Assembly: GCF_004010195.1 (NCBI RefSeq)
Contig: NC_057718.1
Coordinates: 67,893,872 to 67,957,871, forward strand
DNA length: 64,000 bases
Origin: Chiloscyllium plagiosum
Taxonomy: Eukaryota
Reading direction: 5' to 3'
Shown one piece after another: positions 3,476 to 63,593 of this stretch; positions within the stretch are counted from its first letter, which is position 1; the number at the start of each line of letters is the position of its first letter. The position numbers and the translations under genes are program-made. Below the pieces are notes generated by a model that worked only from the letters and a program-made list of their open reading frames with translations, made no database searches and was not told where the DNA came from.

Positions 3476-4850
3476 GAATAACAGGTAGTCTATAATGGCA
3501 GGCTATGTGATAACAAGGGGATTGATATGTGGGGATTTGGGTAAGGACATGGGAGTGCTCAGTCCCTAAAGTTATTGAACTCTATATTGAGTACAAAAGA
3601 CTGCAGCGTCCCCAAGTGGAAAATGAGGTACTGTTCTTCTAGCTTGCACTGAACTTCACTGGAGCACTGCAGCAAGCCTGAAACAGAAAAGTTGGCCAGG
3701 GAACAGGGTGGTTTATTAAAGTAGCAGCCAATTGGAAGCTCAGGGTCTTTCTGGCAGACAGAACATAAGTGTTATGTGAAGCGGCCACTCTGTCTATGCT
3801 GCGCTCCCCCAGTGTGGAGGAAATAACATTGTGAGCAGAGAAGGCTGTAAACTAGATTATGGGAAATGCAGGTAAAGCACTGCTTCATCTAAAAAGTGTG
3901 TTTGGGTCCTTGAGGAGGGGGGAAGAAAACAACAGGTGTAACAGGTATTACACCTTCTGTGGTTGTAGGGTAAGGTGCCATAAGGCTTTAGGGAGGGTGT
4001 TAGGAGTGAATGAAGAGTGAATGAGGGTGTCCCAGAAGGAACAGTCCCTGTGGAAGGCTGACAAGGAAGGGGAGGGTAATAAGTGTCTAGTGATGGCACC
4101 TTGCTGGAGATGGTGGAAATGGTAGCTAACGATCCTCTGGCTGTGGATGCCAGTGGGATGGTAAGTAAAGACAAGGGGAACTCTAAAGCTGTTGCGGGAG
4201 GGAAGAGAGGGCATAAGGGGAGATAGGTTGAACCCAGCTAAGGGCCCCGTCAACAAGGTGCTGGGGAATCCTCAGTTAAGGAAAAAGGTGGGCATTTCAG
4301 AGACACCCTTGTCAAAGTTGGCATTGTTGGAACCGAAGTAATGGAGATGGAGGAACTGGGAGAATGGAATAGAGTGTGACGATGTTAGTCAAGATAACTG
4401 TGGCTTTATAGTGAATGTTGGTGGACAGTCTATCCCCAGAAATAGAAACAGAAATGTTGAGGAAGGGAAGGGAGGAGTCAGAAATGAAGGTAAGACCATG
4501 GTGGAAATTGGAAGCTAAATCGATTAACTTTTCAAATGAACAAGAGAGGGAAGAGCATCGACGATATTTTCGATATACCGAAGAATGAGTTGTGGGGGCT
4601 GGAATAGGACTTGAACGAGGAATGTTCAATGGACCCCACAGAGACAGGCATAACTGCGATGCTGTGTGGGTACCCATGGCCAATCCCCTGACCTGAAGAA
4701 AATGAGAGAAGTGAAAAGAGAAATCATTCAGAGTGAAGATGAGCTCAACCAGGTGGATGAGTTTGGTGGTCGTGGTGGATGGGGATGGTTCAGGAAGAAG
4801 CGGACAGCCTTGAAACCATTTTGGCAGGGGATGGACGCATAAAGGGATTG

Positions 4851-4980
4851 GGCAAAAGTGAGGACTGCAGATGCTGGAAACCAGAGTAGAGATCAGAGTG
4901 GTGCTGGAAAAGCACAGCAGGTCAGGCAGCATCCGAGGAGCAGGAAAATCGACGTTTTGGGCAAAAACCCTTCATCAGGA
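4851..4980 (-). mobile_element. 130-bp PLE-end mini-insertion with hammerhead motif
   Basis: Minus strand begins tcCTGATGAagggtttttgcccAAAACGTC; flanked by atggacgcataaagggattg (4831-4850) and atggatgcgtaaaaggattg (4981-5000). Confidence 0.8.
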
Positions 4981-5534
4981 ATGGATGCGTAAAAGGATTG
5001 CACATCCATGATAAAGAAAAAGCAACTGGAGCCAGCAAGCTGGAAATTCTGAAACTGGTGTAAAACATTGGAAAAATTGAGAAAAGAGAGTTGAGGTAGG
5101 AAGAGATAAATTATGTGGGACAGGATCAGACAGAAATAATGAGTCTACCTCTTTGTGGATTTACGGAAAGGTAGAAGTGAGCTGTGCAGTTGAGAGACTA
5201 CCAGCTTGGAGGCAGTTGGGGGGTGATCACCAGATCAAATAAGGTTGGCAACTGTCATTGACACAATGGCCTGATGTTCCTTCATGTGGTCATGGTCTGG
5301 TGGAGACGGGAGGAGGTATTGCTGGCATTCAGCCTCTGCAACGTAGAGGTCCGTCCGCCAGACTACAACAGCACCACCTTTCTCAGCAGGCTTAATTATA
5401 AAGTCAGGGTTGGATCTGAGAACATGGAGTGCAATCATTTCCAGGGAGTATAAGAGCATTCAAAGTTTGTGCGAAGATTTGTAGCTCGGGTGCTCGTTGT
5501 TGTGGTTCTGTTCGCCGAGCTGGAAGTTTTTGTT

Positions 5535-5574
5535 GCAAACGTTTCGTCCCCTGGCTAGGCGACATCATCAGTGC
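5535..5574 (-). ncRNA. Minimal hammerhead ribozyme motif (antisense twin of 5697-5736)
   Basis: Exact reverse complement within the left arm of the inverted repeat. Confidence 0.75.
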
Positions 5575-5696
5575 TGGGTACCCAATATACCAACCACGAC
5601 AGCGGACAGCTGAAACTGACAACAGGAAGCGGCAGGGACAGACCACTATAAACACCAGAGGAAACATCAAAGAAGCGCTTCGCAAGAGGCTCCCAA

Positions 5697-5736
5697 GCAC
5701 TGATGATGTCGCCTAGCCAGGGGACGAAACGTTTGC
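5697..5736 (+). ncRNA. Minimal type I hammerhead ribozyme motif
   Basis: GCA-CTGATGA-t-GTCgCCT agcc AGGgGAC-GAAA-CG-TT-TGC: intact core, paired stems I and II, ACGT palindrome in place of stem III. Confidence 0.75.
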
Positions 5737-5782
5737 AACAAAAACTTCCAGCTCGGCGAACAGAACCACAACAGTATAAGAG

Positions 5783-7030
5783 TATAAGAATCAAAAGAAT
5801 AAAATATTATTTTAATGGAGAATGACTCCAAAATAGTGCAGCATGAAGGGCTTTTGGAGTTCTTGTGCATGAAGCACGAAAAATGTGGTCTCCTCTACCT
5901 TGGGGAAACAAAGCATAGACTGGGTGCCCACTTTGCAGAACATCTATGTTCTGTCCCCAAAAAAGACCCTGAACTTCCAGTTGCCTGCCACTTCAACACA
6001 TCACCTGTTCCCTGGCCAACATCTCTCTCTCCAGTTTGTTGCAGTGCTCCAGCAAAGTTCAGCGCAAGCTGGAAGAACAGCACATCACTTTCCACATGGA
6101 GGCTCTGCGGCCTTCTGGACTCACTATAGAGTTCAACAGCTTTCGGACTTGAGCTTCTCTTGTCCTTACTCAACCCCCAAATTCCAGGTCCACATCGTCT
6201 GCTATTACACACAACCTATTGGCAGCCACTAATTGTCCTCATTAGTAGCTATTCATCTTCCTCGCCTGACCATTACCAACTCCTTTGTCTGTCCAACTGT
6301 CCATCTCGCTCTTTGGGCTCTATCTCCACCCATTATTTACTTCTTACTCTTTTCGCTCCACACCTTACCTACTGCATTAAAAAAAACAATATTTTCCTAG
6401 CCACCACCAGTTCTGAAGAAGGGTCACTGGACCCAAAATGTTAACTCTGATTTCACTCCATAGATGCTGCCAGACCTGCTGAGCTTTTCCGGAAATTTTT
6501 GTTTTTGTTTCTGATTTCCAGCATCCGCAGTTCTTTCAGTTTTCAAAATGTAAATACTCAGACACAGTAAGTAATTAAGAAGGCAAATAGAATTTGGCTT
6601 TTATTGTTAGAGCTTTGAAGTCTAAAGTTATAGAAGCCTTGTTACACTTGTACAAGGTATTGGTGAGGACAGACCTGGAATAAAGTTTTGGTCCCTTTAT
6701 CTCGAATGGACATGTAGGCATTGGAGGAAATTCAAAAGAGAATCACTAGGCTGATTCCCGTGTTGAAGCGGCTTGGCATGACAAGAATGGTTAAACTAAT
6801 TAAGCTTTCATTCTTTAGACGAATGAGCTCATTGAAACGTGCAAAATTCTGACAAGATTTAACATGATACGTGTTGAGACGATGAAAGTATTTAAAGAGG
6901 AGGTAGGTTAGTGTTTGATATATTGGGGCATTGAGGGTGATGAGCAGCTGGCACAAAATAAAGAGTTCCTGCTTATTGAATGGGAGCCAGGCTTGAGGGG
7001 ATGAATGGCCTACTTTAATTTCTTATGTCT
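5783..7030 (+). mobile_element. Old CR1 ORF2/3' remnant split by a PLE fragment
   Basis: Degenerate KYYFNGE..GVLVHE sequence before 5880 resumes after 6551 (aagaaggcaaatagaat...tgtacaaggtattggtgagg). Confidence 0.7.
5887..6544 (+). mobile_element. PLE 3' fragment (GIY-YIG C-terminus + pLTR)
   Basis: CGLLYLGETKHRLGAHFAEHL...LPVACHFN; hammerhead-like CTGAAGAagggtcactggacccAAAATGTT from 6413; aaaatgt repeated at 5880-5886 and 6545-6551. Confidence 0.85.
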
Positions 7031-13954: not shown

Positions 13955-14197
13955 GATTAGATTAGATTAGATTAGATTAGATTGCAGTGTGGAAACAGGC
14001 CCTTCGGCCCAACAAGTCCACACCGACCCGCCGAAGCGAAACCCACCCATACCCCTACATTTATCCCTTACCTAANNNNNGAGGAAACCCACGCAGACAC
14101 GGGGAGAACGTGCAAACTCCACACAGTCAGTCGCCTGAGGCGGGAACTGAACCCGGGTCTCTGGCGCTGTGAGGCAGCAGTGCCACCGTGCCGCCCA
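13955..14197 (-). mobile_element. Young HE1-like SINE containing an assembly gap (14076-14080)
   Basis: (TTAGA)n tail, CpG-rich body, tRNA-like head with small A-box deletion. Confidence 0.9.
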
Positions 14198-14960
14198 CTC
14201 TGGGGCAACAATTATTAAGTTTATTAAAGACTTGAATGAGGAAAATGAATGTACTGTAGTCAAGTTTATGGATAACAGAAAAATGGTGGGAAGGCATGTG
14301 ATAAGGATGACTCAAATAGATTAAGTGGGCAAAATATTGGCATTTGGAATATGATGTGGGAAAGTGTTACATTGTGGAATTTAGCAGGAAGAATAAAAGA
14401 GCTGAATATTATTGAAATGGAGCAAGAATGCAGAAGGTTACAGAAGACGAATTTGGTAGTCCTTGTACATGAACCTGGAAAATCTAGAATCCAAGTTCAG
14501 CAGAGAATAGAGAAGGCATGCATTTCAAAGGGAATGGAGTAGGGAGGTCTTACTAAAACTTCTCAAGATACAAGTTCAATCCGAGCTGGAATACTGGGAA
14601 CAGGTTTGGTCCCTTTTATCTAAGGAAAGGTATACTGGCATTAGAGGCGCACTAAAGATTTTTCACTTGGCTAATCCCATGGTGAAGGGACTGTCTCGGA
14701 AATCATTGTAATTTAGAAGCTTGACAGGTGACCTCATTCAAACATTTCAAATTCTTCGGGAACATGACAGAGTAGATGCTGAAAGGTTTTTTTCTTGTTG
14801 AGGAAATTCTAGGAGCAGGTGGCATAATCTCAGAGTAAGGTTTACACATTTAAGACTGAGATGAGGAGGATTTCTTCTGAGGGCAGTGAATCTGTGGAAT
14901 TGTTTAGCACAGCTGGATTGTTAAGTCTACCCTTATCAAGACTAAGATAGATGGATATTT

Positions 14961-22794: not shown

Positions 22795-23680
22795 AATTCT
22801 GTTGATGAAGAGGTGTCTTGGTTTGAAACGTTAGCTTGCTCTCTCTCCATGGATGCTATCTGACTAGATGTGATTTCCATCATTTTTTTGTGTTCCGTCA
22901 TTTCTATTGAAGTTGGTAGTGTTATTTTGCACAAAACAAAATGTAGTTTGATATGTAGTTTCCCTAATGATTTTACATGTGACAGTAGCAAGTAATTTCG
23001 AGTTTGGTATGACTATTTCAGAACTGAAAGGTGTTAGACGATGTTTTTTTTAATGATTTTGACAGGGGCAGAGAAGGAGCAAGAGACAGATCATATGGAG
23101 GTCCAGGGCAAAGGGTTTGCTAATGATGGTGAAAGAGAAAAAGAAATGTAGTATGGATATCAATTAAGGTGTGAAATGGAGAGGATAGATCCTCTTAACT
23201 AAGAGCAAAGGCAAACAGGACAAAGCTGCATGGAGATGGAGACTCAACAATGATATTCATAACTTCAAAAAAATGGCAGTATTATGTCTTTCTCCAATTT
23301 TTCTCACATTCTCTCTTGCCCTCCGCCTCCCCTAATCCCCACACCTTTGCCTTGTTTCTGCCTTGTTTACTTTGCTCTGAATAAGGAGAACCAGTTCTCT
23401 CTCTTTAATATCTTAATTTACATTCATTTTACATCTCTTTCTCTTACACTACCATTAGCCATTCCTTTTGTCTTTTGCACTGGGCTTCTACATCATCTGT
23501 TCTCTTGTACTTCCTTCACCTCTGTCAAAAGTATAAAAAACATTTTCTAACACCTTTCAATTCTGAAGAAGTGTCATACCTGACTTGAAACGTAACTCCG
23601 TTTCACTTTCAAAGCTGCTGTCAGACCTTCTGAGTTTCTCCAGCATTCTGTTTGCTCCAGATTTACAGCATCTGCAATGT
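22795..23680. mobile_element. Old PLE-end fragments including a decayed fold-back
   Basis: ttcagaactgaaaggtgttaga (~23017) is inverted relative to tctaacacctttcaattctgaa (~23546); hammerhead-like CTGAAGA..GAAACGT at 23563-23593. Confidence 0.6.
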
Positions 23681-25204: not shown

Positions 25205-25478
25205 GAAGAGAAAATGAGGTCTGCAGATGCTGGAGATCAGAGATGGAAATGTGTTGCTGGAGAAGCGCAGCAGGTCAGGCAGCATCTAGGGAACAGGAGA
25301 ATCGACGTTTCGGGCATTAGCCCTTCTTCAGGAATGAGGAAAGTTTGTCCAGCAGGCTAAGATAAAAGATAGGGAGGAGGGACTTGGGGGAGGGGCGTCT
25401 GAAATGTGATAGGTGGAAAAAGGTCAAGGTGAGGGTGATAGGACAGATTGGGGTGGGGGCGGAGAGGTCGGGAAGAAG
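25205..25478 (-). mobile_element. Young PLE pLTR fragment
   Basis: Same family as 33275 and 61911 inserts; CpGs retained. Confidence 0.8.
25302..25334 (-). ncRNA. Minimal hammerhead ribozyme motif, intact core
   Basis: ttcCTGAAGAaGGGCtaatGCCCGAAACGTCga. Confidence 0.7.
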
Positions 25479-31704: not shown

Positions 31705-34700
31705 GATGACCATTTAAATACCCTTAAAGTTGGTGAGTCTGCTACTGTTGCAGGCAGTGCATTCCACGCCCATACTACTCTGAGTAAAGAAACTACCTCT
31801 TACATCTGTCCTATATCTATCATCCCTCAATTTAAAGCTATGTCTCCTCGTGCTAACCATCACCAATCAAGGAAAAAGGCTCTCACTCTAACCCTCTAAT
31901 TATCTTAAATGTCTCAACTAATTCACCTCTCAACCTCCTTCTCTTGAACAAAAACAGCCTCAAGTCCCTCAGCCTTTCCTCATTAGACTTTCCCTCCATA
32001 CCAGGCACATCCTAGTAAATCTCCTCTGAACCCTTTCCAAAGCTTCCACATTCTTCCTATAATGGGGTGACAAGAGCTATACACAATATTCCAAGTGCGA
32101 CCACATCAGAGTTTTGTACTGCTGCAGCATGACATCATGGATCTGAAACTCAATCCCTCTCCCAATAAAAGCCAACACACTGTATGTTTTCTTAACAATC
32201 CTATCAACCTGTGTGGCAACTTTCAAGGATCCCTCTACTCATCTACACTACCAAGAATCTTACCATTAGCCCCATCCTCTGCATTCCTGTTGCTCCTTCC
32301 AAAGTGAATCACCTCACACTTTTCCGCATTAAACTCCATTTTCCACCTCTCAGCCCAGGTCTGCAGCTTATCTATGTCCCTCTGTAACCTACAACATCCT
32401 TCTGCACTATCCACAACTCTATCAACCTTAGTGCTATCTACATATTTAGTAACCCATCCTTCTATGCTCTCATCCAGCTCATTTATAAAAATGGCAAACA
32501 GCAATAGACCCAAAACAGATCCTTACAGTACACCACAAGTAACTGAACTCCAGGATGAACATTTCCCATTAACCATCACCCTCTGTCATTTTTCTGCTAG
32601 CCAATTTCTGATCCAAACCACTAAATCACCTTCAATCCCATGCTTCCATATTTTGTGCAATAGCCTACCGTGGGGAACGTTAACAAACGCCTTACTAAAA
32701 TCCATATACACCCCATGAACTGCTTTACCCTCATCCACCTGTTTGGTCACCATCTCAAAGATCTCAATAAGGTTTGTGAGGCACGACAGACCCTTCACAA
32801 AACAGTGTTGACTATCCCTAATCAACATATCCCTTTCTAGATGATTATAAATCCTCACTCTTATAACCTTTTCCAACACTTTAACCATAACCCAAGTAAG
32901 GCTCACTGGTCTATAATTACCAGGGTTTCTCTACTCCCCTTCATGAACAAGGGGACAATATTTGCTATCCTCCAGTCTTCTGGCACTATTCCTGTAGACA
33001 ATGACAACATAAAGATCAAAGCCAAAGGTGCGGCAATCTAGGCTAAATCCCACCCGACCCAGGGGACTTATCCATTTTTACACCTTCCAGAATTGCTAAC
33101 CTCCTTGTGAAACTCAATCGCATGTAGTCTAGTAGCCTGTATCTCTGTATTCTCCTCAACAGCATTGTCTTTTTCCAGTGTAAATACTGACAAAAAACAT
33201 TTATTTAGCACTTCCCCTGTCTCCTCTGACTCCACGCACAACTTCCCACTCCTATCCTTGATTGGCCCTAACCTGAAGAAGGGCTTATGCCCGAAACGTC
33301 GATTCTCCTGTTCCCTGGATGCTGCCTGATCTGCTGCGCTTTTCCAGAAACACATTTTCAGCACTGGCCCTAACCTTATTCTAGTCATTCTTTATTTCCT
33401 GATATACCTTGGAAAACTTTAGGGTTTTCGTTGATCTTACCTGCCAACAACTTCCCATGTCCTCTCCTGGCTCCTCTTGGCTCTTCATTTAGGTCTTTCC
33501 TGGCTAACCTATAACTCTCAAGCGCACTAACTGAGCCTTCACATCTCATCCAAACTTAGGCCTCCTTCTTCCTCTTGACAAAAGATTCAACTTCTTTAGT
33601 AAGCCACGGCTCCCGAGCTCAACAACTTTTTCCCTGGCTGACAGGTATATACTTATCAAGGACGTGCAGTAGCTGTTCCTTGATTAAGCTCCACATTTCA
33701 ATTGTGCCCATCCCCTGCAGTTTTCTTCCTCATCTGATGCATCCTAAATCTTGCCTAATCAATAATAACTGCCTTTCCACCATCTATAACTCTTGCCTGT
33801 GGTATCTACCTATCCCTTTCCATCGCTAATGTAAACATAATTGAATTGTGGTCACTATCACAAAGTGCTCACCTACTTCCAAATCTAATGCCTGGCCAGG
33901 TTCATTCCCCAGTACCAAATCCAATGTGGCTTCGCCCCTTGTTGGCTTGTTTACACACTCTGTCAGGAAACCATCCTGCACACATTAGACAAAAATTGAC
34001 CCATCTAAAGTACTCTAACTACAGTATTTCCAGTCAATATTTGGAAAGTTAAAGTCCTCATACAAACTATTCCTGTTACTGTTGCTACTATCCAGAATTA
34101 TCTTTGCTATCCTTTCCTCTACATCTCTGGAACTATTTGAAGGACTATACAAAACTTCCAATAAGGTGATCTCTCCTTTCTGTTTCTAACCTCAGCCCAT
34201 ACTCCCTTAGTAGATGAGTCCTCAAACATCCTTAATGCAACTGTAATATCGTCCTTGAAATCACCACAACATTGATGTCCCAGGTACCAACCCATGCTGC
34301 AAGTTCACTCACTTTATTCCGGATGCTCCTGACGTTGAAGTAGATACGCTTCAAACCAACTTCTTCCTTGCTGGTGCCCTTTTGCAAACCTTATTTCTGA
34401 TCTCACTACTCTCAACCTCCTGTATACTCGAACTGCAATTTGGGTTCCCATCCCCCTGCAGAATTAGTTTAAACCCACCCGAAGAGCATTAGCAAATCTT
34501 CCCCCTAGAGTACAGGTAACCCTCTAGTTCAGGTGAACAGTATTCTGTTTGTAGAGGTCCCACCTACCCCAGAACATGCCCCAATTATCCAGGAATCCAA
34601 AACAGTCCCTCTTGCACCATCCCTGTAACTACGTGTTCAACTCCTCTCTCTCCCTATTCCTCGCCTCACTAGCACATGGTACGGGTAACAAACCAGCGAT

Positions 34701-40907: not shown

Positions 40908-41107
40908 ATAGTTATATATAAAAGTCAACATTTAGATGTTGCATTTTATGTACTTGCTCATTCGTGAATGATCTTGATTTCGATGGCCGAAGGGCCTGTT
41001 TCCACACTGTAAGTAATCTAATCTAATCTAATAGTTATATATAAAAGTCAACATTTAGATGTTGCATTTTATGTACTTGCTCATTCGTGAATGATCTTGA
41101 TTTCGAT
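40908..41107 (+). repeat. Perfect 77-bp direct duplication flanking a 46-bp SINE/LINE tail
   Basis: 40908-40984 = 41031-41107; insert ggccgaagggcctgtttccacactgtaagtaatctaatctaatcta. Confidence 0.92.
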
Positions 41108-47779: not shown

Positions 47780-48396
47780 TGATGTGGAGATGCCTGTGTT
47801 GGACAAAATTAAAAATCACACAATGCCAGGTTATAGTCCAACAGGTGTACATGGAAGTTCGGGCTTTCAGAGTAGGAATTTATAAAACGTCACATGGATT
47901 GACTGCTTACAAGTGGTGAGGTTGTCTCTCTCTTTTTCTATTTCTCTCTCTCTCTCTCTCTCTCATGCACGCGCGCACACAAGTGTATGGGGCAAAATTG
48001 TGTTTGCAGATACATCCTGTTGTGTTCAAAAAGCACACAATCTATAGGTAGTCAATCCAGGTGACATTTTATAAATTTCTGCTTTGGAAATAGAACCAAT
48101 CTGACTCAAGATTGAAATATAGTCAGATTCGAACTCACATCTTTAATGCATTGTCTGAGCTGAGATGTCACTTTTTTTAATAAAACCTTTAGTTTTCTAA
48201 AAGATGAAAGACTTAACAGCAATCTAGTATGTTCAACATATTAAATCAGTTGAATGACACTGATCTTTTGCTATAAATTCTGTGTCCTTTGATCCTGCCC
48301 CACATAGCTACTGATGAAGGAGCAGCACTCTGAAAGCTTGTACTTCCAAACAAAACTGTTGGAACATAACCTGGCGTCGTGATTTTTAACTTTGTC
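47780..48396. mobile_element. Fold-back PLE pLTR element (AGCT family) with internal (TC)n/(CA)n
   Basis: Inverted tail 47780-47875; CTGATGAaGGAGcagcaCTCTGAAAGCTT from 48311. Confidence 0.75.
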
Positions 48397-48399
48397 CTT

Positions 48400-54950: not shown

Positions 54951-57730
54951 TGAAATAACTCCACAGAGGCTGGTTTCCCATCACCAAGTTGTCCTTTACT
55001 TACAAGTGCACCTCAGAGCCAGCTCTGAGTGAAGAGAATCTCTGAGAATATCTGTTAGCCGGGGCTGCCTGTTTGGGACTGTTAACTTGGTCCAATCAGG
55101 GAACTCTTATATCCCTCCCCCTCTAAGTCCAGGGATACAGACTTGTTCATTTTCTTGTATCCTCCTGCAACATTTTCACAATGGGTCTGGTTCTTCTGAC
55201 TCTGCTTTGGACATGGATGATGTGTACCAGACCATAGCCTGCGTCTTTTACCTGACCTTCTCAGAAGAAATTCTTCCTCTTCAGGCGGTAAAAGTATTCA
55301 GACTACAACATCCGCCGAGTCCGTCTCAGCCTCTGAGGTTTCTTTGCTAGATGGAGGGGGAGAACGCATGGGTTCCAATAGCCTTTCTAGCTGTTCTGAC
55401 CTGATTGAGTATGTTTTGCTCCTGCTTCGTTCACGACTTTGCAGCTTTCATATGGTCCACTTGCTTGTTCAGACTGTCTCACCTACCCGAACTTGGTACG
55501 TCACAGTACCTGACCGGATCTCACATTGACCATGCCACTTACCCATGCAGGGCCATTTCCGTGGTTTTGGCGCCAAACGTCATTCCCCGAAGTAAAAGTC
55601 TCTGTTGCTTAGAGGAGTTTTGCATGCAGAATTGGCATTCCTAAAGCTGTTGACACCTCAGTCCCCCATCCGAAGATCAGATTTAACCTTGTGCAGAGTC
55701 TCCTCCCCATTAGCCACTCTGCTGGAACTATCCGTATAGTTCTGTGAAGGGTAGTCCGATAATCAAATAGGAATCAGGACAATTTGGTGTGAGGTAAAGC
55801 TGTAGACTGTTTCTTTAAGCTTGCATCCAAAGTTTAGACTGCTCTTTCCACCAAGCCATTGGACAATGGATGGTATGGAGTTGTCGTTGTATGCCAAATG
55901 CCATTCGACTTTAGGAAATACTGGAATTCCCTGCTGGTAAATGACAGCCTATTGTCTGTGGCCAACACTTCCGGGAGTCCATGTATTGCAAAAGTTGCTT
56001 GTAGCTTTTCTATCGTCATCCTATGTTTGACAAGTGAACTTTATTCACGGCCAACCACTTTGAATGGGTGCTCATAATGAGTAAGAAGGTTTCGCTCATG
56101 AAAAGAACAGCATAGACGACTTTGGTTCACCCAACCATTCTCACAAATGTGGGGAAGTTGCTGGTGATAATTTTCGTCCTTGTTGGCAATCTGGGCATCA
56201 GATAGAACTTCTTTCTTCATTTTGGACACCCCCCGTGGAGTTCAGCCAGTATAAAGCGACAAACTTTGCTCGGGCCAACTACTCTTGCTCCTCATAATAA
56301 ATTGCTGTCTGCGATAGTGATCTGGTCTCACCAGGTCCAGAGATGTTTCAGTTCTGATTGTGATGGCCCTTTTGTAACCCCCCCCCCCCCCCAACCACCA
56401 TTTTAGTTTTAGCAGGACGTGATCTTTTTGGATCCACAGTCTGTTATTGTCAGTGGTGACCAGAAGGAAATCCAGAAAGTTAAAAACCAGAATGGAATCT
56501 TCCAGCAGAGGCACCACTGGTGGTGTACCTGCCAGCGGGAGGTGACTCAAGGCATTGACATTTGTCTCTTGGCCTCCTCCACAATGTTCTAACTTTCACT
56601 TAAAGTAAGAACCCACCATTGAATTCAACCTGAAGCTTTGGGCAGCACAGCCTTTGGCATATTTGCACTCTGTATCAGCCAAAGTCTAGGAAACGCACTG
56701 TTGGGCATTCGTCTGCATTGGGCCATCTGTGAAGCAAAACTACCCTGATGCCGTGTGGAGAGGCATCATGTGTCAGTACCAGATCTCACTTGGAATCAGT
56801 GTTCGTCAACACCTTAGACGATGATGGCTGTTACTTGACTTGCCTAAAGACTGGCTATGAGATCATTTCCAAGGCTGACCCTTTTAAAATAGCAAATGTA
56901 AGGGTACCAGAATGGAGGCAAGGTTACGTATGAACTGTCAGTAATAATTCATCAACCGAAGGAAAGACCTAAGCTCTGGTACAGACGTGAGAGCCAGGGC
57001 ATCTTTGATTGCCCTCATTTTATCTTGCAACAGGTGTGACCTGGTATTTCGACTCCAGCCCAAGTAGGTCACTTGGAATGCCTGAAGTACATTTTTCCTT
57101 CCATCAGGCTTGGGTCCGAGTCTTTTACTACAATCAGTGGTAACTGAACCAGCTGCTTCTCATACAAGACCAGAACCAAAGTTGTACTCTTAATCTGTAA
57201 GCATTCACCAGTATAGGTTCTCAGTCTAGCCGAGGCCTTATGCAAACTTAAGGGTTGGAGTCCACAGAGAATTTTGTCAAATGCTGGTCCTACAACCAGC
57301 AATATAGCTGTGTCGGTGTAAACCTCCATTAGGACCAGGTGACCATTTAACCAGTTGTCTATTTTGATTGGTTCTGATTTGGATGTGGCTGAGTAATTTA
57401 ACTGTTCCAAACCAGATGTAGATGGACTTGCCAGGATGTGTACTCTCTTAGATACCGGTCTATGAGTTCTCTTACATTTAGGTCTACTGGGACTCTCACT
57501 GTCTTGACTCTGCAAACTGGCAACAACTACAATGACTTGCTGGCTTGGATCCTGGAGAAAATGTTGACTGTTTGATCGAGGCATGGTTTTATTTTGGGGT
57601 TTTGCTGTGGGATGACCTAGACTCCCTCTGTTCAGGAAATGTTCTGAGTTAGGCTGTGTAATTGCCTTCACTTAAATGGTGTTCAACTGACTTGCTGCCA
57701 GTTTTGCCAGAGACACCAACTCGGTAGCAT
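54951..57730 (-). mobile_element. Decayed Gypsy/Ty3 LTR retrotransposon with 3' LTR
   Basis: Order protease (LMEVYTDTA) - RT end (ELRSFL.LMNYY) - RNase H (DASPHGI) - integrase (HGLPEVLATDN..PYHPLSNGLVERAV); PPT AGAGGGGGAGGGA at 55112-55124; short LTR ~54951-55111. Confidence 0.85.
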
Positions 57731-59341
57731 AGTGTTAAGATTCTCAACTACTTTGTTTCTAAGAAATTCTCCTATATTCCATCCTAGTGCTCAATTCCTC
57801 TCAGCATATCTCTGCACTGCATTACAAAACTTCATCCTAAACCTACTTAGATTCAAAACAATTTTGTCATTTTCAGTTTCTTTAACATGTTTGAACCAAT
57901 TTCTTAGTGAGTTATTTCTCATTGAAAATACCACAGCAGAAAATTTTTTATTTTTGGTCATTAGAGATGTACTGAGGGCATTACCTTTGCACTCAACACC
58001 TGACAAAATAGGGTGTGGGCACTGAGAAAAGAATGGAGATGCACAGCAATTGGATCTCTTGCTTGTGGTGCTATAGTATGACTAGAAGACCAGACTGACT
58101 TGGAGCTTTCGTTGTGGGAGATCCGAGAGTCTGAAGTTTTCGCATAAAGAGCAAGAATTAAGACAGTGCCAACTGTTCTCTCCCTTCTCCATCTGTATCC
58201 CTTCTGCACGTTTCTTGATAGAATATTGGAGATCCCAAGAGTCTGTGGACCTCTCGTTTTGGAATCCTGGATCTTCCTTTGCTGTTGAGCAGAAAATGGT
58301 ATTTGGAGAAGGAACTGCACACCAAAAAAAAAGTACTGACTTTTAGCTAATGCCTTTGGGACTCCAGCTAAATGGTGATGATAAACTGCTGAATGATAGT
58401 GTTGAAGGAGTACATTTACATCCCTGTTGGTTAATCCAGTGAGAATAAAAACTGTTCTTACAACTGGAAAGTTTGAGGACCCCTTTAAGATTTGACCTGT
58501 CAACTTTCGTGTAATTTTCATGTCACATGGTGTGGTCTTGATTAAATGATTGAACTCATTCAAACCATCTTGTAACTGAAAGCAATCCCACTGATGTGGC
58601 AGTCCTGAAAGACTTTGTGGTTAGAAGTGCTTTCTATTCTATGGTCCCACTGGGCCACATACCTTTTATATTGGTCTCAACTTTTAGGTGTTGGTGACAA
58701 ACAGAGACGATAGTACCAAGCACATTTCCCTATTTGGGAAAGTGTGTTAGTTCTCAAGCCCTACTCCTCACAGAATTGCCATGAAGGTTAATGGTCTAAT
58801 CAAAACATGCAAAGTTCCTGATTTAAATTTCGGAATTATGTTAGCAGAAAATATTGACCAGAATTTCTGTACTTAACAAAAACTGCTGTTATCAACTCAT
58901 TATTTCTAATCACAAGTTAACAGCATAACAGCATAAACTGTCAGCATAACGCTCCACTAGTTAAAAATCACAATTGAACAAACTAATCAGCTACTCGTTG
59001 ATGAAATCTCACTCTGCACATATCTACTGGTGGCATTTACTAACAGCTTTCCCATTGCTTGAAAAACCAGTAGTCTAAATTTAATGAGTTTCATTAACTT
59101 GTGCAGCCGTTTCTTCCACAGATTTCCTTTCTTTGTTTTTAAAACAGTCCTTGTTTTTCATTTTAGTCCACAATCAAAAACAGAATGATATGGTCTTACA
59201 GAAGTGGCAAATTCTAACTAACATAACACAGTCTGACATAACACATTTTGTCAAAATGAATAGGGAAAGGCCATGTAGATTTACTGGCACATTTCTAAAG
59301 AGTATACAAGGATAAAGGAACCTGAAAGTTCATGTGCACAT

Positions 59342-59506
59342 ATGATTTGGAGATGCCGGTGTTGGACTGGGGTGTACAAAGTTAAAAATCACACAACACC
59401 AGGTTACAGTCGAACAGGTTTATTTGGAAGCATTAGCTTTCGGAGTGCTGCTCCTGCTTCCAAATAAATCTGTTGGACTGTAACCTGGTGTTGTATGATG
59501 TTTAAC
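59342..59506. mobile_element. Fold-back PLE mini-element
   Basis: 52-bp inverted arms 59381-59432 / 59455-59506 (4 mismatches); duplication catgtgcacat at 59331-59341 and 59507-59517. Confidence 0.85.
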
Positions 59507-59820
59507 CATGTGCACATCACCTGAGGGTGGAAGGATATATTGAGAGAGCAGTTAATCAAGTACCTGAACAGTATATGGAATTTTGGACGTCATAAATTGA
59601 GGTATTTTGTATTAGAGCAGGCAACTGTTGCTGAGGTATCCTAAAGTTCTGGTTAGGCTACAACTGGGTTATTGCTTCCAGTTCTGGTGATCATACTTCA
59701 AGAAAATTTTGAGAGTTTTTGAGAAGGTGCAGAGGAGATTTAACAGAATTGTTCTAAGGATGAAGTAGCTTACCCACAAGGTTGCATTGGAGAAGCTAAA
59801 GTTGTTCTGCTCAGAGCTTG

Positions 59821-59946
59821 AACTACCTGATGAAAGAGCAGTGCTCTGAAAGGGAGTGCTTCCAAATGAACCTCTTGGACTATAACCTGGTGGTTTGTGA
59901 TTTTTAACTTTGTGCACCCCAGTCCAACACTGACACCTCCAAGTCA
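59821..59946 (+). mobile_element. PLE-end mini-insertion (AGCT family) starting near hammerhead
   Basis: CTGATGAaAGAGCagtGCTCTGAAA from 59827; palindrome mutated. Confidence 0.75.
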
Positions 59947-60369
59947 TGCTTGGAGCAAAGCAGATTTAATAGAAGTTATGACAGATTTAGATAACGTAGG
60001 CAAAGAAAAGCTGTTTGCATCAGTTGATGTTAGAAGGAATAGTGGACAAAGATATAAAGTTTGAGTGAAGCGGGGGTGTGGGAAAAACTTTAGTCAGTGA
60101 GTGATAATGACCTGGACCCCTCTGCCTTGGAGGGTAATGGCAGTAGAGACTATTGATGATTTAGATAGTGTGTTCAATGAACATTTGAAGCAAGTAAATA
60201 GGCAGGGTTACAAGGATAGAGAAGATGAATAGGATAGATTGGATTACTCTTCCAGGAACTGCCATGGAATGCCCCCTTATATCATAATGACTGGTAACTA
60301 ATTATTTGGCTAAATTCATAATCTGTTATCAACAGTAATTTATATTTATGATATGGAAGATTTGAGGAC

Positions 60370-63366: not shown

Positions 63367-63593
63367 NNNNNNNNNNNNNNNNNNNNNNNNNNNNNNNNNN
63401 NNNNNNNNNNNNNNNNNNNNNNNNNNNNNNNNNNNNNNNNNNNNNNNNNNNNNNNNNNNNNNNNNNNNNNNNNNNNNNNNNNNNNNNNNNNNNNNNNNNN
63501 NNNNNNNNNNNNNNNNNNNNNNNNNNNNNNNNNNNNNNNNNNNNNNNNNNNNNNNNNNNNNNNNNNNNNNNNNNNNNNNNNNNNNNNNNNNNN
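63367..63593. other. Assembly gap
   Basis: Run of N. Confidence 1.

Follow-up and report, generated by a model that had tools for sequence, protein, structure and literature searches.

A young fold-back insertion with a hammerhead motif on each strand, very probably a by-product of a Penelope/Poseidon-type element in a shark-type genome

Described relatives of the insertion

The closest described counterparts of the insertion reported here are copies of Pen2a and Pen2 in Adineta vaga, which, in the available text of PMC3846280 and the scheme in PMC8557442, have an inverted pseudo-LTR (pLTR) on the 5' side and a tail at one side only. Both features are found also in the insertion, which measures 316 bp and occupies positions 5457-5772 of the window, i.e. 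of the whole 64-kb stretch of DNA that was analysed, and it further shares with these copies the first ORF codons within the pLTR, a palindrome at the junction and a target-site duplication in the range of 8-10 bp. It differs from them in a direct unit that is cut to 193 nt and in a palindrome of 10 bp, and its tail comprises 41 nt (the family ends suggest 39-40), whereas 31 nt or "30-40" has been published for Adineta and for Penelope-like elements (PLEs).

A second relevant system is PAc, the Poseidon element of Anolis carolinensis. As far as the accessible part of PMC11167929 goes, its enzyme cuts and extends both DNA strands, is a predicted dimer and uses uncleaved RNA, and it prefers A+T-rich DNA and has two start sites, the interval between which is the tail. 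Like in PAc, the ORF belonging to the insertion starts at helix II of the hammerhead, and the start codon precedes the cut site by 26 bp in PAc, with 25 nt between the two here. Both have an end some 110 nt inside the ORF (one initiation site of PAc is at 111-118, and the distal end of the insertion is 107-109 nt into the ORF), a tail between two ends and an A+T-rich target. Host and sequence are different, the cut site here is GUU, and an inverted arm is not modelled in the part of PMC11167929 at hand.

As described in the available text of PMC4209133 (2014), the minimal hammerheads of metazoan PLEs have an unpaired base before helix II, a G-C closing pair, a palindromic helix III with a zero loop and a short helix I, all of which recur in the insertion; helix I of the putative ribozyme has 3 bp here, and 4-5 bp in the Schistosoma families. 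Dual minimal hammerheads on opposite strands, 100-700 bp apart, have been reported there, too, and the insertion has the same arrangement. Non-LTR retrozymes (bioRxiv 10.64898/2026.07.22.740005, as far as accessible) are likewise short, non-coding, pLTR-related and hammerhead-bearing, but they form tandem head-to-tail arrays, whereas the insertion is a single head-to-head unit with ORF remnants. With no tandem organisation and one core per strand, an identity with non-LTR retrozymes was rejected. The insertion is very probably a dead-on-arrival by-product of a high-copy, recently active, endonuclease-bearing Penelope/Poseidon-type element of a shark-type genome, a grading that covers its identity and its by-product status. 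It is thus an ordinary by-product of jumping with a layout that has already been described for the class.

Structure of the insertion

An exact inverted repeat with arms of 78 nt (5498-5575 and 5696-5773) and a spacer of 120 nt forms the core of the insertion, and the left arm is longer by 41 nt (5457-5497). A first-pass annotation, made from the sequence alone, had described the perfect repeat, the spacer and the extra left tail in just these terms, and sequence comparison found them exact. The second-longest perfect inverted match of the window has 38 nt, and the fold-back reaches a folding z-score of -19.7, with none of 100 shuffled sequences being equally stable. The direct duplication of 10 bp at the flanks (5447-5456, with 70% A+T, and 5773-5782, both read on the plus strand) and the resulting length of 316 bp could likewise be verified; such a duplication is expected by chance with a probability of about 3e-5 if 25 end pairings are allowed. 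Base 5773 is common to the right arm and the duplication. The right copy of the duplication is part of a tandem of 8 nt (5773-5788) that seems older than the insertion, since a contig of organism B aligns to 5773-5983 without a gap and since the length of the empty site, considered below, agrees with this order.

The two halves of the insertion are unequal. On the minus strand, the left unit (about 5578-5457, about 120 nt) consists of a pLTR and the tail. Its arm (5498-5575) is the inverted pLTR with a hammerhead and the ORF start (ATG at 5565-5563), and the tail (5457-5497, minus strand) is ORF sequence between the proximal and the distal family end; it is found on this unit only and translates in frame with the arm. 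The right unit (5580-5772, plus strand, 193 nt) has no tail and consists of an ORF end and a pLTR. The ORF end (5580-5716) is that of the parent, truncated at its 5' side behind the GIY-YIG motif, with 44 open codons and a stop at 5714-5716 inside the arm, whereas the pLTR (5696-5773) is in direct orientation and extends as far as the proximal family end, which is 67-68 nt inside the next ORF. The start codon of the parent ORF (5706-5708) overlaps the hammerhead core, with 25 nt between it and the cut site. At the junction of both units, where an inversion around gggtaccc had been proposed, there is indeed a perfect palindrome of 10 bp (5575-5584), the right half of which is native element sequence. 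The 5-letter motif CCCAA is present at 5581 and again at 5692.

That the fold-back is real and no product of the assembler or of a chimeric read can be stated with little reservation. High-copy perfect inverted repeats are hard to assemble (PMC8557442, in its available part), and none of the contigs listed (the best 24 of 37,437) bridges the inner or the right junction, but two studies on organism A have contigs that cross the left junction letter for letter (5392-5480 and 5392-5482; they reach 24 and 26 letters into the insertion, below the 31-letter rule for a bridge), and a clean 10-bp duplication, an asymmetric tail and the use of both family ends would not be expected of a chimera. An artefact is therefore hardly conceivable. 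One of the two studies, run X1, may be the source data of the assembly itself, and run X2 comes from a different study.

The hammerhead motifs

There is one hammerhead core on each strand, at 5700-5733 (plus) and at 5571-5538 (minus), and the hammerhead pattern occurs at five places in the window, compared with 0.02 expected. The plus-strand motif (5697-5736) is of the minimal type I by its core pattern and helices. It has a helix I of 3 bp (5697-99/5734-36), a core at 5700-5706, an unpaired U at 5707, a helix II that begins at 5708/5725, and a palindromic zero-loop helix III, and thereby shows the core, the helix I, the helix II with an extra 5' base and the palindromic helix III of minimal hammerheads. 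Cleavage is predicted after 5733, with GUU at the site, which is the majority sequence also among the family-aligned contigs of organism A. The mirror copy (5535-5574, minus strand) was identified by pattern match, and the pattern search thus bears out the claim of a hammerhead on both strands and of a plus-strand cut after 5733, while Rfam at its gathering score had no match across the window.

It is a different matter whether such a motif would act. In the available text of PMC4209133, minimal PLE hammerheads are inactive as single motifs and weakly cleaving as dimers, and in that of PMC11167929 the anole hammerhead cleaved only with protein. By analogy, self-cleavage of the single minimal hammerhead would not be expected here, because such a motif needs a second sense copy or the help of a protein and there is one core per strand. 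No pile-up of read ends was seen at 5733 in one polyA library, a type that is ill suited to reveal cleavage.

The parent element

The spacer can be translated from 5582 on into a peptide of 44 codons, and this peptide matches four proteins among 1.84 billion representatives (best E-value 1.8e-08, 70% identity). Three of the four are proteins of Chiloscyllium punctatum with 60-70% identity, in which the matching part is the C-terminal stretch that follows a GIY-YIG-type motif; the fourth, P0006, was rejected as a relative, as it is an unrelated repeat protein. A search with the best match led to six longer proteins, five of which have a precomputed reverse transcriptase (RT) domain. The peptide of the arm and tail begins with the ATG inside the hammerhead and corresponds to the start of an RT ORF, being identical to residues 19-54 of P0013 (656 aa) at 32 of 36 positions in a direct comparison. 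P0013 has an RVT_1 domain (43.5 bits, cut-off 29.6), and in a tblastn search of the window with P0013 and P0003 all three matches were inside the insertion and none elsewhere. Pfam recognised no family in the two peptides, both of which are short, and when the spacer peptide was compared with longer proteins by word index, none of four candidates scored. The end had been annotated as Penelope-like, and the matches of arm and spacer to RT and GIY-YIG-type proteins agree with that; by P0013, the C. punctatum proteins and the tblastn result, the arm is related to an element of this kind.

The relatives also give an idea of the complete enzyme. A GIY-YIG-type motif is visible in four of the five examined, and two of them (P0009 and P0010) have RT and the GIY-YIG-type motif in one chain. 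Pfam GIY-YIG is the sole endonuclease match in the relatives, with scores of 15.2-22.2 that are under the cut-off of 22.6, and P0003 has no such match. Other features of an endonuclease-bearing (EN+) PLE are present, namely an RT domain in the parent ORF (indirectly, via P0013), a pLTR with the ORF start and a hammerhead, and an inverted 5'-truncated copy with a tail of about 30-40 bp at one end and a short duplication. In the available text of PMC8557442, Neptune and Nematis carry a CX2-5CxxC zinc finger in the linker. Such a finger between RT and endonuclease is found in none of five relatives, and its lack, together with the overlap of hammerhead and ORF, points to a parent of the Penelope/Poseidon clade. 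The copy itself is unable to encode an RT or an endonuclease. No paper that names the shark family was found in a literature search, out of the reach of which Repbase lies.

The family and its ends

Four sequencing runs were aligned to 5000-6250 at 90% likeness. The summed depth over the whole insertion is 0.3-1.6 million in X1, a value that is not a copy number, compared with about 8 on a unique flank contig, and the parent family is clearly a very common one. Loose ends of the aligned sequences pile up at 5458/5459 (71 and 97 contigs in X1, 74 and 83 in X2, 58 and 96 in X9), and, among the best 24 of 1167 positions listed, such a pile is present in all four runs. A second pile is at 5773/5774 or at the mirror position 5496 in three of the four runs, again among the best 24 of 1167 (26 at 5774 in X1, 12 at 5496 in X2, and 20 reads at 5773 in X21). 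The flanks of these loose ends are mixed and mostly A+T-rich. Counted from the ORF start, the family ends lie at 107-109 and 67-68 nt; both outer ends of the insertion coincide with them and agree with the pair of initiation sites that has been published for the anole element. The 27-nt tail pattern had no match in metagenome contigs.

The inner boundary is another case. Ahead of 5580, the aligned sequences run into the parent ORF (23 in X1, 37 in X2, 23 reads in X21), and 5580 is therefore a truncation point that is private to this insertion. This bears on the idea, implied in the first-pass annotation, that the 316-bp unit is a family of its own, i.e. a non-autonomous, MITE-like or retrozyme-like mini-element that is copied as a unit. 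The very high depth across the whole insertion, the intact duplication and the perfect arms would suit a mini-element, but the depth drops to 277,000 in the junction bin, with 996,000 and 972,000 in its neighbours (X1), the spacer is the end of the parent ORF, and the family contigs continue into that ORF. There is also no tandem organisation as in non-LTR retrozymes, and no second copy of the family was found in the window, which at the same time upholds the observation that the insertion differs from the other PLE ends there. Further head-to-head joints use other breakpoints (among them 5479 to 5580, 5511 to 5748, and 5523 to 5732; they have short sides and are weak), and the family alignments gave no sign of the same internal junction at other sites among the rows listed. 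A mini-element is thus very unlikely, and a by-product of the parent element is the reading that is followed below.

Age and the empty site

The insertion is young. It had been judged the most recent element of its kind in the region, and this stands, with 98.8% for its inverted repeat and 65-87% for nine other inverted repeats within 3 kb. Its 18 CpGs correspond to an observed/expected ratio of 0.87, as compared with 0.27 for the window, and in 1245 sliding windows elsewhere the highest ratio was 0.89, in a window with 8 CpGs. The statement that there is no CpG decay was nevertheless too strong in one detail: at 5657 the insertion has CpA, where CpG makes up 92-96% of the family depth in X1 and X2. 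Gene conversion is not needed to explain the identical arms, since identity has a probability of 0.13-0.46 at a divergence of 1.3-0.5%. Letters that differ from at least 96% of the family depth in X1 occur at four of 116 spacer positions and at none of 119 positions of arm and tail (Fisher p 0.06; among the best 40 of 76 rows listed), and the four deviant spacer letters were probably for the most part inherited from the source copy.

A relative of the host seems to lack the insertion. In a contig of 266 letters from organism B, 211 letters align to 5773-5983, and the other 55 have just the length of 5392-5446, 5392 being also the position at which the contigs of organism A begin. An empty site with a single copy of the 10-mer would have exactly 266 letters, and from this length match we infer that organism B carries the empty site; the joint is not among the best 15 of 104 joints. 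A 9-bp duplication with a new 8-nt slip was rejected, as the empty site would then have 258 letters and not 266. In the flanks, the window and organism B differ at 23 of 901 letters (2.6%). At six diagnostic places (5472, 5682, 5704, 5711, 5717 and 5745), a letter other than that of the window is found in 97-100% of the depth in organism B and in 31-60% in X1, and by these letters the subfamily of the window is largely confined to organism A.

Formation of the fold-back

How the inverted arm of Penelope-like insertions forms is unsettled in the literature, judged from the accessible parts of PMC3846280, PMC8557442 and PMC11167929; in the first, junction palindromes are taken as a sign of self-priming with an antisense template, and in the second the tail is ascribed to a resolution by the endonuclease. 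A simple mirror image of the right unit was excluded, since it would contain the spacer a second time and have no tail. We give about an even chance to a joining of two primed cDNAs head to head, a step that is deduced from one locus. The endonuclease of the element would cut both strands 10 nt apart, and each 3' end would prime reverse transcription, with the top strand starting at the distal site, which would give the tail, and the bottom strand starting at the proximal one. The two cDNAs would extend through the uncleaved hammerhead and then stop early, the right one at 5580 and the left one just upstream of helix I. The right cDNA would thereafter snap back by about 5 nt and anneal to the left cDNA via the shared CCCA motif, and the loss of one base at the annealing would lead to the junction palindrome. 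A snap-back of about 5 nt and an annealing at CCCAA appear feasible, as the motif is present at both cDNA ends (5581 and 5692).

The same by-product of the same element could also stem from one cDNA that folds back and primes itself on the antisense template, as has been proposed for Adineta, if it then jumps over the two CCCAA motifs, whereby about 112 nt are dropped, and if the endonuclease trims one of the tails. This route, which is possible and yet the less probable of the two, is closer to the published reading of palindromes and tails (PMC3846280 and PMC8557442, in their available parts), and the perfect 10-bp palindrome, the two occurrences of CCCAA and the 100% identity of the arms are all in line with it. 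It needs two extra steps, however, the jump and the trimming, and the in vitro work in the accessible text of PMC11167929 shows both ends to be initiation sites and both strands to be extended. The term "twin priming" was not found in PLE papers among the matches listed in a literature search (titles and texts as far as available). A single locus is of little weight, as stubs of this known class of retroelements are very numerous, but the insertion is a clean specimen: it is young, its outer ends are the two family ends, its junction is intact, and a relative probably has the empty site. A genome-wide count of such copies could tell two-ended priming from self-priming.

Hairpin and RNA

The arms of the insertion would form a duplex of -160.9 kcal/mol in folding calculations. 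As had been claimed, a transcript from either strand would contain one ribozyme and its exact antisense arm, and the antisense arm precedes the ribozyme on either strand, so that it is made first in both directions. In the full insertion the pair probabilities of the ribozyme helices I and II are 0.000 on both strands, and this holds also for transcripts that end just past the ribozyme, while they are 0.67-0.96 in the left unit alone; the isolated right arm, too, folds poorly into the ribozyme (0.004-0.06). The predicted competition of hairpin and ribozyme is thus correct as far as the helices are concerned, which are abolished in the calculations, but there is probably no activity that could be suppressed. 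Most likely, in any read-through RNA, the ribozyme would be trapped in the 78-bp duplex without a sense partner and be silent.

A long perfect duplex, if transcribed, is a plausible substrate of ADAR. RNA data came from one polyA single-cell run, of which about 2% was read and which gave 293 reads on the region. Family-like RNA is found on both strands in this library, but 16 of the 293 reads are 99% alike, 90% run on into other sequence, and in the same portion of the run the unique flanks (5084-5419 and 5798-5923) are free of reads and no pile-up of starts or ends is seen. There are 11 A>G places in the RNA and 9-12 in the DNA contigs, of the same kind as the variants of the family DNA. The suggested action of ADAR or Dicer therefore found no backing in this one run, which is weak evidence either way. 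A functional RNA device, in which the hairpin controls the ribozyme or provides ADAR or Dicer with substrate and has a role for the host or in the control of the element, could be seen in the stable duplex, in the drop of the ribozyme probabilities to 0.000 and in the RNA from both strands, but it is very doubtful in view of these reads, of the poor folding of the right arm, and of the apparent absence of the insertion in a relative 2.6% apart, which means that there is no conservation.

Returning to the by-product reading, one may speculate, although the idea as a whole is rather improbable, that fold-back stubs arise when an enzyme acting as a dimer starts from both cut ends, with one initiation site used at each, and that, because the antisense arm comes first on either strand in the head-to-head layout, any read-through gives long perfect dsRNA against the ORF start. 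If this were true, a young lineage-specific subfamily would, as a side effect of its mobility, produce the RNA that triggers its silencing, and wherever a relative has the empty site, such a locus would document integration directly. Among the matches listed in a literature search, no paper on PLE hairpins was recognised by title or the start of the abstract.

Surroundings in the window

The insertion is enclosed by older, decayed PLE sequence of another kind, with an RT fragment on the left (4855-5450, minus strand) and an endonuclease fragment with its end on the right (5880-6536, plus strand), both of which, by their motifs, may be Neptune-like; the outer ends of the two fragments make up an old inverted repeat (4861-4933 and 6463-6534, 75%). 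Between the insertion and the right fragment, 5786-5882 is 69% like 14389-14482 and is presumably a piece of a CR1-type LINE. The 10-bp palindrome of the junction recurs 908 bp upstream at 4667-4676, inside the old RT fragment, probably by chance, though the recurrence might also be the source of a templated patch.

As to host genes, Pfam, run on 8 of the 39 long frames listed, had no match, one frame had no usable atlas match, and one had none among 656 candidates of the word index. Three overlapping or adjacent long open frames of 200, 125 and 219 codons at 57069-58620 are possibly non-coding; they have no Pfam match, and one is without an atlas match and one without a word-index match. Two assembly gaps (14076-14080, 5 N, and 63367-63593, 227 N) both adjoin repeats. 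An exact direct repeat of 77 bp (40908-40984 and 41031-41107) surrounds an insert of 46 bp that looks like a short SINE end with a tail of the TAATC type, the duplication being unusually long and perfect for this.

Another family of PLE ends has minimal-hammerhead matches at 25304-25331 (minus strand) and 33273-33300 (plus strand). Older fold-backs lie at 59342-59947 (85% arm identity), 47801-48397 (79%) and 22996-23590 (66%), and they contain hammerhead-like cores at 59827, 48311 and 23563.
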